From the human T2T-CHM13v2.0 reference genome, Homo sapiens, in the NCBI RefSeq assembly GCF_009914755.1, contig NC_060944.1: a stretch of 64,000 nt of DNA. One strand, written 5' to 3'. The notes under the pieces are model-generated. The model did no database searches. It worked only from the letters and a program-made list of their open reading frames with translations, and was not told where the DNA came from. How positions within the stretch are numbered: the first letter of the stretch is position 1; each line of letters begins with the position of its first letter. Shown in pieces: positions 11,371-15,200 of this stretch. Made by a program: the position numbers and the translations under genes.

Positions 11371-12269
11371 TTTTCCCCCTGGGAAACTACCTTAACTTGT
11401 CTTCAACTGAAATTTTTTCAGCCTGCAAAGATGAGTTGTGCCTCAGAGGTTGCTCGTGTTCTGAGGTGCCTCTTCACCACTGCCTGTCAGGCTGCTAACC
11501 AGAGTGCCCCAGACCACAGCAGAAGCGACAGCAGCCAAGGATCGGGGGAGCCCACCCTGCTCCTGGGTATCTTTACGGCAGGCAGCAGAGTAACAGCCTC
11601 AGACTTACCTCTTCAGCCAGAGACCCCTCAGCCCAGGAGGAGTGAGGCCGGGCCAGCAGCGGGGGCCCGGGAAGCCCCATGTCTTGGGACCTGCTGGGGC
11701 AGGGCCCCCTGGATGTCAGGCTGCAGGTCCGGCAGCTGGGGAGGGGATGAGGGCCTCCCACCAGCTCTGCCCATCAGCCAGATCCCTGGGAGAGGCAGCA
11801 CTTGCTGGCCACAGAGTCGGCCCCAGTCTCACCTGGCTCCCCTCCCCCACCAGCTGGGCCCTGCACTGCCCCAGCCCACGCGGCGCCTCACCCCTCCTTG
11901 ACAGAACAGTATCTCTGGGACGGACAAGTTAATCCAAGACCCACAGTAGCCCTGGATCCCCTGGGAGAGGTGGCTGCCCAGCTCCAGGGCCAGGTTAATT
12001 GAAGTGATAGGGAGTGGAGAGAGGGAGGGGGCAGGGCTGGGATTGCGTGGCCTTTCCTTCCCTCTCCTGCTCCCTCCCTCAGCTTGGAGGAGCCAACTTC
12101 AAAAGCCTCCGCCTGGCCTGCCCCTCTGCAGTCCTCCAGGCAGCCTGTCCAGGGAAGCGGTTGGCTGGTGTTGGACCTGGTGCGGCAGTGCACACCCTGC
12201 CCAAGGACCCCAGGATCATGTGCGTGGCCTGCTGGCGGGAGTGAGGGAGGGCAAGACCCTGAAAGGCCC

Positions 12270-14705
12270 ATGGTGAGCAGCTGTGGGCCTCCTCTAGGGA
12301 GGGGGCTTACTTGGGTGGAGGGGCTGGGGGTACACACAGCTCAGGAGACACTGCTTGTTCCCCTGAGCCCCACCAGGAAATCTCCGGTTGGCTCTGGTCA
12401 CTGCGTCCCTGTGGGTGGCACTGGGTGCATGTGCCCTGGCTTCTGGCAGTTGGGGGAGGGGGGCTCCTGGGTGCCGGGCAACCCTGTTCTAAGCTGGGCT
12501 GAGGCTTGAGCCTGGAAGTGGTACTAACAGGCCAGTTGGGACTCCCAGGGCAGCCAGTCTGCCCCACCTGGGTGGGACACAGCAGGTGCTGGACATCCTT
12601 GCAGCTCCAGCTGGCCTGCTCAGGAGTCAGGCTCTGGTTCTCGCTATGACCTCTGACCCAGAGCAGGCAGAGGGAATGACGTGGCAATTCTGAGCCCACC
12701 AAGTTGGCTGTGGCGTGTGTGGTTGGGGGGGTCAGGTTTCAGGAAGGGGCCACAGCAAGCCATCTGCTCTTCCAGCCATTGCTGCTTTGTGCTCTGAGCA
12801 GGAGCTGCCACCGCCCACCAGGCCCCCAGCTCTATGCAAGGGTTGGGGTGCTGCTTGTTCAGGCTCCCCTGACAGGGCTAGGAAGCCGAGTCGAGTCCTC
12901 TTATCTTGGTTGGGTTCGCATGATTAATTTCCAGCCCTAGATCTGCTGTCTGACTCCATCCTGGGGGCCCAGGGGAAGGGTTGGGGCTGGCCCCTTTTGG
13001 GTGGCTGGGAACCTGGGGGCCGTCAGCTGTCTCCTTGATGTTTGGGCTTTATCCCTGCGGGCGCAGGCCCTCCATTTTGGGTCGGGGGAGGCCTGTGGCA
13101 CAGGCTGCCCGGAGGGATGGCGTGGGGCGGCTGGTACAGGCAGAGGGGCCTTTTGCGACTGTTGGTTGGGGCTGGATGTGGTGGCTCCTTCCTCCTCTAT
13201 AGCTTCTGGGTGTCCCCCTAGCTTTCCCCTTCCAATAGGGTGTGGCTTGGAGCTCTGAGCCCCTGCCCCAGTTGGGTTGGGGGTACAAGGAGTCCCCAGT
13301 TCCCACGTCTCTGTGAGCTAACCCAGAGGGCGCCAGTATGGGAGGTGTGGAGTTGAATGGGCATGGCCATGAGTGAGACAGGCTGTACTGGGACAACTTC
13401 CTACTGTACCCCCAAGAGCCTGCAGACCAGCCCCACTAGAGCTGTACGGGGCTGGTGGGGGGCCCTGCTCTGTGCGGTCCTGAGGGTGCTCCACCCCTTG
13501 CTGGCCCCACTCCCACGTGGACCACAGAGCCAGGCTCTCCTGACTCTGGGCCTGCCCCCTCTATCTCCTGATGGGTTCTTCAGGACTCAGTGACATCGCC
13601 TCCCAGCCGACATCACTCACCCCTTTCACATCTTTGCAGGGAGCATAGAACTGTCTGGTTTGCAGACCTATCTCTTGTGTCTCCTGATTTATCCCGCCAG
13701 GCCTGTGCCTACAGCCTTTCTTGATTGGTGACACGTCCATTTCATTCGCTCAGAGATCCCGTGGGGTGGGGCAGGGGGTGGGGCTTCTACGGAAACAAAG
13801 TGCAGGTGGGCTGGCTGCTCCCTGTGCTGGGAACACCCCCCAGGCCTAACCCCAACCTGCTGTCTCCTCCAGGTACCCCCTAAGCCTGCACTCTGGGCGC
13901 TCCTGCTGGCGCTGCTGGGGACCGCGCCAAGCCGCGCCTATTCCCCGGCCTGCAGCGTCCCCGACGTGCTCCGCCACTATCGCGCCATCATCTTCGAGGA
14001 TCTGCAGGCCGCCGTGAAGTGGGGCGGGGCGGGGGCCGAAAAGACCAGGCCAGGCTCCAGACACTTTCATTTCATACAGAAAAACCTGACTAGACCCGGG
14101 AGCTCGGGACGGCGGGGACGGCCTCGGGCCTCCTGTGGCGCCCAGAAGGTATGGAGGAGGCGCCCCTACCCAAGCTCGCCGGCCTGCTCCTCTCTCAGTT
14201 TCCCCCCACCCCCACCCCGCCTTCCTCCCTTCCCTCCCCAGGAGCACAGTATCCTCCTGTCCATCTCGTCCCTGGGTCGGACCCTGCGCGGGGCGGTGGC
14301 CGGGGGCCGCCGCGGGGCCCTGGAGAGAGCTGCTTGGACCGTGGCTGTGCGCACCGAGGCGGTGATGCGGCGCCACTGCAGGACGCTGCGCCAGGTGTGC
14401 GTCCCTGAGTGCACCCAGAGCCAGACCTCCCTTAACCCCCACAGGGCCGCCGCGCGTCCCGGGGCTCCACGGCCCTAGGCTGAAGTCGGGCTGGGTCGCG
14501 TCTCCCTTCCCGGGCCGGGCCGGGCGCGGGGGCCGTGCGCATTCGCTGACCGCCCTGTCCCCGACAGCGGAGCCGGCGGCCCAAGATGCGCCCTGCCCGG
14601 CGTCGCGGCGGCCGAAGGCAGCTCCTGCTGCGCGCCCTGGACGCCGTCGCCACCTGCTGGGAGAAGCTCTTCGCGCTGCGCGCCCCGGCCTCCAGGGACT
14701 CCTAG
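12270..14705 (+). CDS. C20orf204: C20orf204 (formerly LINC00176/PRR17), 189 aa, predicted secreted IL-7/TSLP-like helical protein. Coding exons 12270-12272 (ATG only), 13873-14148, 14242-14394, 14568-14705
   Basis: ATG|gtgagc donor at 12270-12278, pyrimidine/AG acceptors, all introns phase 0. Product MVPPKPALWALLLALLGTAPSRAYSPACSVPDVLRHYRAIIFEDLQ...CGAQK|EHSILL...RHCRTLRQ|RSRRPK...LLLRALDAVATCWEKLFALRAPASRDS*; AATAAA at 14917. Confidence 0.88.
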
Positions 14706-15200
14706 CGCGGCCCGTCCTGGCCCTGCGCGGGGAGGAGAACCAGCGGGGCCGCGGCAGAGCCTGGAGACGCGCCTCGTTCTGTAGACTTGTTGGTGACCTC
14801 GGCCCCTCGCTCGACGCAGCCCGCGCTCCCCGGAGGGCCCAGGACTTGGAGAAGGGAGCGCGCCTGGCCGCCGCTGGGTCACGGAGGAGGCCCGCCCTCC
14901 ACGCGCCGAAGGCCTCAATAAACGGAGCTGGCGCTGCGGGTCCGGCACTCCCTTCGCCTGCTTCTCTGTGGGCCTAGGACCGCCCCGGGATCTGCGCCTC
15001 GGTGGCGGGGGGCGGTGGAGGGGGAATGCGGAGACCCGCACTTCCTGTGGCACCTGGACGGGGCGGAGCCGCCGCTCCCAGCCTCGGGCAGCAGAGGGCG
15101 GACGCGGGACGCTGGGCGCGCTCCGGCTCTGTCAGCGGCTCCCGGCTGGGCGGAGGGCAGAGCGGGGGACTCCTGGGGCCCCTAAAACGTCACGTATCCG
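13900..15200. promoter_or_regulatory. CpG island over the C20orf204 coding exons and 3' end
   Basis: Very high CG dinucleotide density by inspection. Confidence 0.75.
14917..14922 (+). terminator. C20orf204: C20orf204 polyadenylation signal (AATAAA)
   Basis: Canonical AATAAA about 210 nt after the TAG in otherwise GC-rich sequence. Confidence 0.8.

Follow-up and report, generated by a model that had tools for sequence, protein, structure and literature searches.

The window, a 64,000-nucleotide stretch of the human T2T-CHM13v2.0 reference genome (contig NC_060944.1 of assembly GCF_009914755.1), carries on its plus strand, at positions 12270-14705, the gene C20orf204. We propose, with a probability of roughly 0.5, that the product of this gene is a helical cytokine, secreted and remotely akin to IL-7 and TSLP. 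The protein would be made with a cleavable signal peptide, enter the endoplasmic reticulum (ER) and be N-glycosylated at N72. Its mature chain would fold as a helical cytokine, into a bundle of four helices running up-up-down-down, with two disulfides: a probable C28-C139 bond would tie the N-terminus to the end of helix C, and a probable C89-C174 bond would join the end of the AB loop to helix D, beside a buried Trp175. Very divergent from its relatives IL-7 and TSLP, and very basic, it would act outside the cell, probably held by its charge on heparan sulfate or matrix, as the ligand of a class-I cytokine receptor. The nucleolar, nucleolin-binding pool observed under overexpression would then be untranslocated or re-internalised protein.

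The coding parts at 12270-12272, 13873-14148, 14242-14394 and 14568-14705 are bounded by GT donors and AG acceptors, and every junction is in phase 0. Spliced, they give 570 nt that translate into 189 amino acids and a TAG stop (14703-14705). The initiator ATG forms the final three bases of its exon (12270-12272), directly followed by the donor GT, and a scan for ATG-started open reading frames (ORFs) does not contain the exon-2 frame. The first-pass annotation, which had announced a spliced 189-residue product missed by the ORF track, was thus right, and translation also bears out the N-terminus that it quoted, its four cysteines and no others (C28, C89, C139 and C174, with codons at 13951, 14134, 14377 and 14655) and its sequon N72-L-T (14083-14091), the sole one in the protein. 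The human product contains 32 Arg and has a calculated isoelectric point (pI) near 11.9. The start context reads AGGCCCATG followed by G, with a weak -3 position (C) and G at +4, and the leader (12083-12269) holds neither an in-frame upstream ATG nor an in-frame stop. It does hold an upstream ORF of eight codons (12218-12244, plus strand, ATG at 12218), out of frame with the main ATG and ending 26 nt ahead of it. Together with the weak -3 context, this upstream ORF may limit translation of the 189-residue product.

The proposed signal peptide shows the usual three-part layout: K5, then an apolar stretch from residue 6 to 17 (Kyte-Doolittle mean over 11 residues of up to 2.45) and a predicted cleavage site after A23, with S at -3, A at -1 and Y24 next. 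Apart from the initiator it is encoded at 13873-13938 (residues 2-23). At -1, 83 of 94 orthologues carry a small residue (A/T/S/G). Published cell biology is in line with this layout. Translation of the protein has been demonstrated, with forms of 22, 24 and 26 kDa of which endoglycosidase H (EndoH) removes the upper two, and part of the protein co-stains with KDEL, which marks the ER (Burbano De Lara et al., 2021; PMC7969625). Since the only sequon is EndoH-sensitive, the chain around N72 must lie inside the ER, and ER entry is shown by these glycoforms and the KDEL staining. The words "secret" and "signal peptide" are absent from the text of that paper (PMC7969625). In the same work, overexpression doubles the growth of HeLa cells, and deletion of residues 1-72 weakens the growth effect and leaves the protein mainly cytoplasmic (PMC7969625). 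An autocrine action fits this growth effect and its weakening without residues 1-72 as well as a nucleolar model does.

C20orf204 does code for a protein, and the gene goes back at least to the therian mammals. Searching with exon 2 yielded 78 proteins, each either a named C20orf204 homologue or unnamed, and 160 matches came from a profile built on 28 clean orthologues. The matches listed (120 of the 160) come from primates, rodents, lagomorphs, bats, carnivores, ungulates, whales, pangolin, shrews, Afrotheria, Xenarthra and three marsupials. An exhaustive phmmer search restricted to exon 2, run against 1.84 billion representatives, gave 35 proteins, all at least 52% identical, and nothing beyond orthologues. 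The gibbon gene model matches the human product at 99.5% identity, while the Aotus protein has the same 189 residues, is 91.5% identical and aligns without gaps. It serves here as stand-in for human, and all whole-protein scans and fold models were run on orthologues. As the first-pass annotation had expected of a genuine family member, the key residues are kept: among 93 orthologues, a set that includes two visibly out-of-frame gene models, C28 is present in all, C89 and C139 in 92 each, C174 and W175 in 91 each and W125 in 89, and the sequon is somewhat less constant (N72 in 86, T74 in 81). Every orthologue is very basic (pI 9.95-12.0). Alignment positions 140-162 alone hold 6-17 Arg/Lys per orthologue (median 10), and an R-x-[KR]-R motif occurs in this CD-loop region in 39 of 94.

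Automatic annotation has given the orthologues many faulty gene models, with intron read-through, out-of-frame C-termini or N-terminal extensions that bury the signal peptide (P0007, P0019, P0035, P0084, P0042, P0077, P0071, P0091, P0022 and P0053 are affected). Some bear the names of neighbouring genes, one "PRP6 factor" and one "TCEA2", the latter with a TFIIS-type Pfam domain. Behind such models the family may have escaped the notice of annotation pipelines. For the mouse orthologue, Gm29797, no paper was found in the literature searched.

The AlphaFold2 model of the Aotus protein, of moderate confidence (predicted local distance difference test, pLDDT, 66; predicted template modelling score, pTM, 0.62), places Cys28 (13951-13953) directly ahead of helix A (residues 30-53, 13957-14028; pLDDT about 81-82 at residues 31-50). 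A long, low-confidence AB crossover of 40 residues follows (54-93, 14029-14148), which carries the sequon and Cys89 (14134-14136). Helix B (94-111, 14242-14295; mean top-residue frequency 0.85) is linked by a BC loop of seven residues to helix C (119-138), which contains W125 (14335-14337) and runs into Cys139 (14377-14379; helix and cysteine together 14317-14379). The CD loop of 18 residues begins at residue 139 in exon 3, and its exon-4 part (145-156, 14568-14603) is strongly basic and of low confidence. Helix D (157-186, 14604-14693) carries the adjacent Cys174-Trp175 pair (14655-14660). Four long helices with long AB and CD crossovers and a short BC loop constitute the class-I cytokine layout. 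AlphaFold2 had earlier been applied to 28 sequences, with a result of too low quality for use (pLDDT 42.8) that showed the same secondary structure. Conservation is higher in the helices (0.82-0.91) than in the loops (0.62-0.76).

When this model was compared with 48,161 chains, the best 26 were all helical cytokines, aligned over residues ~20-189; ferritin and Dps-type bundles rank lower and span only residues ~90-187. A Foldseek search of the model against the PDB gave no match at E <= 0.001. Identity in the structural alignments is highest with TSLP (15-20%), followed by IL-7 (12-13%) and by IL-11, IL-6, G-CSF and CNTF (about 10%). In a language-model search, the Aotus protein has only helical cytokines of vertebrates as neighbours: EPO (0.90), IFN-lambda (0.89), IL-34 (0.88) and the IL-10 family (0.87). 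For a rodent orthologue, with the EPO, IFN-lambda, IL-34 and IL-10 families set aside, the foremost neighbours are two IL-7 clusters (0.85 and 0.82), at a level that the tool itself grades as a lead only. On the predicted model, then, C20orf204 looks like a helical cytokine, and the four-helix bundle foreseen by the first-pass annotation is supported. Its description of all four helices as amphipathic holds in part: the four long helices are there, and a hydrophobic-moment test favours amphipathicity for A (p = 0.049) and B (p = 0.034), not for C (p = 0.225) or D (p = 0.85).

Kinship with IL-7 and TSLP, the core of the initial proposal, was examined with Pfam models on 98 orthologues; the curated cut-offs are 27 bits for TSLP (PF15216) and 26.8 bits for IL7 (PF01415). 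The TSLP model is matched in 13 of the 98, always below threshold: 12 of the 13 muroid rodents scanned (16.7-20.8 bits, E-values from 3.9e-4 to 7.3e-3) plus a single ground squirrel (E 0.073). The IL7 model, likewise below threshold, is matched in two, a bat (E 0.061) and a meerkat (E 0.19), at 13.7 bits at best. All other cytokine models, including those for long-chain and class-II cytokines, gave no match among the 98. That the two families named in advance are the sole cytokine models to appear is hard to put down to chance, yet it is no proof. The TSLP matches are colinear, and nearly all begin at the sequon region and reach helix C or the CD loop. Because three of them stop at or just past helix C (residue 144 or 149), the basic CD loop is not the driver of the match. 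Both IL7 matches are ungapped and put the Cys174-Trp175 pair on profile positions 123-124 of 134. The end-points of the structural alignments with IL-7 (model residue 185 on chain residue 152, 180 on 147) give an offset of 33, which places the same pair on chain residues 141-142, in agreement with the ungapped profile placement.

Several results weigh against this kinship. No TSLP or IL7 match reaches its curated cut-off (20.8 and 13.7 bits at best), primates, marsupials and most other lineages match neither model, and the rodent matches to TSLP amount effectively to a single lineage. An unrelated Pfam model, PF24656 (CEP76 peptidase-like), recurs in 18 of the 98 orthologues (E 0.024-0.31), where residues ~87-134, from the end of the AB loop to helix C, align with profile positions 12-77; we treat this match as probably due to chance. 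Family profiles built from 28, 14 and 94 orthologues found no IL-7 or TSLP chain among the PDB sequences at E <= 10, and the structure fails to separate IL-7 and TSLP from IL-6, IL-11 and G-CSF. The only PDB matches of these profiles, two for the 94-orthologue profile (ribosomal S15, E 0.89; Eap, E 1.7), were judged spurious. A single rodent protein searched against the PDB sequences returned only von Willebrand A1 domains (E 0.19-0.99), with IL-7 and TSLP absent. The individual human exons matched no Pfam family and no PDB sequence at E <= 10. Membership of the IL-7/TSLP family is weakly supported: the sub-threshold matches, the IL-7 clusters and the agreeing registers speak for it, and the lack of a significant match and the non-specific structure speak against it.

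The cysteines provide a further line of comparison. Human TSLP has the bonds Cys34-Cys110, Cys69-Cys75 and Cys90-Cys137, and its Trp148 is buried in helix D (PMC5382266). For IL-7, whose pairing is taken here from the wording of one review, the third bond, untraced in the structure, is predicted to run from the N-terminus to where helix C ends, and the single tryptophan, located in helix D, lies inside the core and is connected with correct folding (PMC7396566). Every human TSLP row of our structure comparison aligns model residue 26 with chain residue 32, so that C28 falls on TSLP Cys34; PDB entries 4NN5-4NN7 we take to be the mouse TSLP complex. By the end-point registers, W175 in helix D coincides with residue 142 of IL-7 and is 0-2 residues away from residue 148 of TSLP. 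C28 and C139 are conserved at the positions that correspond to the N-terminus-to-helix-C bond of TSLP and to the one predicted for IL-7. All four cysteines lie toward the same end of the bundle, and the pairings C28-C139/C89-C174 and C28-C174/C89-C139 are thus both geometrically possible; by analogy with TSLP and IL-7, the former is the most likely. The first-pass annotation had preferred the latter, which disagrees with Cys34-Cys110 of TSLP and with the description of IL-7 in the review. Its designation of the helix-D tryptophan of IL-7 as relevant to the receptor is likewise at odds with that review, in which the residue belongs to the core and to folding (PMC7396566).

The best-surviving alternative is that C20orf204 is a secretory protein with a cytokine fold that stands outside the IL-7/TSLP family, either as a relative of IL-6, IL-11, G-CSF or CNTF or as a family of its own, with the TSLP and IL7 profile matches arising by chance. 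It would gain from the inability of the structure to discriminate, but the Pfam scan found TSLP and IL7 and none of the long-chain or class-II models. Moreover, the structural identity peaks with TSLP, and the cysteine layout (at the N-terminus, before helix B, at the end of helix C, and in helix D beside Trp) fits the descriptions of TSLP and IL-7 in the passages available. We regard this alternative as unlikely, though it deserves to be kept in view.

A second explanation, the published one, takes C20orf204 as a nucleolar protein, rich in arginine, whose work inside the cell is to bind nucleolin and make it more stable, to bind ribosomal RNA (rRNA) and to raise rRNA transcription, with the ER as a side route and the fold without extracellular role. 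It has direct experimental backing, which also counts against our proposal: most of the overexpressed Myc-tagged protein is nucleolar and bound to nucleolin and rRNA, it co-localises with nucleolin and fibrillarin in three cell lines, and it interacts with nucleolin in co-precipitation and, directly, in a GST pull-down (GST, glutathione S-transferase) with purified nucleolin (PMC7969625). Furthermore, the half-life of nucleolin is longer and rRNA labelling is raised, knock-down in HepG2 cuts proliferation to about half, and nuclear staining is present in 14 of 20 primary hepatocellular carcinomas (PMC7969625). A pI near 12 and 32 Arg suit such a role too. However, very basic proteins adhere to acidic nucleolin and rRNA and gather in nucleoli non-specifically. 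A hydrophobic signal-peptide core and four cysteines kept from marsupials to human are hard to explain in a nucleolar protein, and the EndoH-sensitive glycoforms prove translocation of N72 into the ER. The localisation rests on overexpressed, C-terminally tagged protein, and the published work, in the passages available, left the culture medium unexamined (PMC7969625). Nucleolar and extracellular roles are, in addition, compatible rather than mutually exclusive. A purely nucleolar function is, in our judgement, quite improbable. Far more improbable still is that the four-helix model stems artificially from too shallow an alignment, the protein being largely disordered and arginine-rich and its cytokine matches reflecting only generic long helices, since both AlphaFold2 runs give identical secondary structure, the helices are better conserved than the loops, the top-ranking cytokine chains cover nearly the whole protein where ferritin and Dps bundles cover only its second half, and the sequence-only language-model search independently returns cytokines.

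A secreted helical cytokine with distant ties to IL-7 and TSLP thus is the reading that we prefer, and only part of it is new. The gene, its translation and a general likeness to interleukins are already in print: interleukins and growth hormones were given as putative C20orf204 homologues in 2023 (Kilinc et al., 2023, PNAS). The first-pass annotation had called the cytokine unrecognised, which is no longer true of the general likeness and may still apply to the IL-7/TSLP link, as no paper containing both "C20orf204" and "TSLP" was found in the literature searched. The passages of the papers examined contain neither the signal peptide nor the conserved pattern of Cys and Trp, and mention neither conservation among therians nor a specific tie to IL-7 and TSLP. 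A 2026 review, in the passages available, gives the product only as a nuclear peptide encoded by a long non-coding RNA (lncRNA), so that a conserved candidate with a cytokine fold is now treated as a cancer "lncRNA peptide" of the nucleolus. Other reports concern the locus without distinguishing coding from non-coding isoforms: LINC00176 is raised in CD4+ T cells in lupus, the bovine homologue is switched on in WC1.1+ gamma-delta T cells of tuberculosis-positive cattle, and the C20orf204/LINC00176 locus is a marker of LGR5+ intestinal epithelial stem cells.

C20orf204 is, in our view, a credible candidate for an orphan cytokine, and the hints that it is kin to IL-7 and TSLP are weak but specific. 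It is very seldom that a new human helical cytokine comes to light, and every one discovered to date has given access to receptor biology and drug targets. Antibodies to TSLP and to the IL-7 receptor are used in the clinic or under development (PMC7396566), and people without IL-7 retain T-cell lineages that are lost in people without IL-7R (PMC11444196). If C20orf204 were to use IL-7R-alpha or CRLF2, it would bear on this lineage gap, and its growth effect in hepatocellular carcinoma could be read as autocrine signalling instead of a nucleolar mechanism. The boldest version, in which C20orf204 is a third, still functional mammalian member of the IL-7/TSLP family that signals through a receptor with IL-7R-alpha or CRLF2 and contributes to the IL-7R-dependent, IL-7-independent lymphocyte biology of humans, is a speculation that we consider doubtful. 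Should the cytokine reading fail altogether, C20orf204 would remain a well-conserved basic secretory protein with no assigned role.

The annotated surroundings of the gene comprise SOX18, TCEA2, RGS19, OPRL1, NPBWR2 and MYT1 (window positions 23606-64000 and beyond). This block is presumably the paralogue of the 8q11 block SOX17-TCEA1-RGS20-OPRK1-NPBWR1-ST18, and IL7, which we take to lie at 8q21, shares that chromosome arm. On these positions, and as part of the boldest version above, C20orf204 could be a whole-genome-duplication sister of IL7; a literature search on a paralogon between chromosomes 8 and 20 gave nothing usable. RefSeq "silencer" elements at 14241-14310 and 14411-14730 overlap coding exons 3 and 4, and annotated enhancer elements fill the large intron (12408-13595).

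C20orf204 differs from each of the closest known systems. TSLP (PDB 5J11) has six cysteines, C20orf204 four, and by cysteine spacing (111 versus 76) the AB loop of C20orf204 is about 35 residues longer. In TSLP the CD loop is disordered, with seven basic residues and a proposed furin site, and the receptor-binding face is positive (PMC5382266); the corresponding region of the C20orf204 orthologues holds 6-17 basic residues, and its pI near 12 sets the protein apart from TSLP. TSLP is also marked by a buried water site and a pi-helical turn, and such a turn or kink in helix A is described both for TSLP (PMC5382266) and for IL-7 (PMC7396566). IL-7 (PDB 3DI2, 3DI3) has three disulfides, as against the two predicted here. 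With the long-chain cytokines IL-11, IL-6, G-CSF and CNTF the identity is about 10%, and none of the 98 orthologues matched their Pfam models. In long-chain cytokines of the gp130 type the disulfides are local or absent, unlike the cross-links at the end of the bundle that are predicted for C20orf204.
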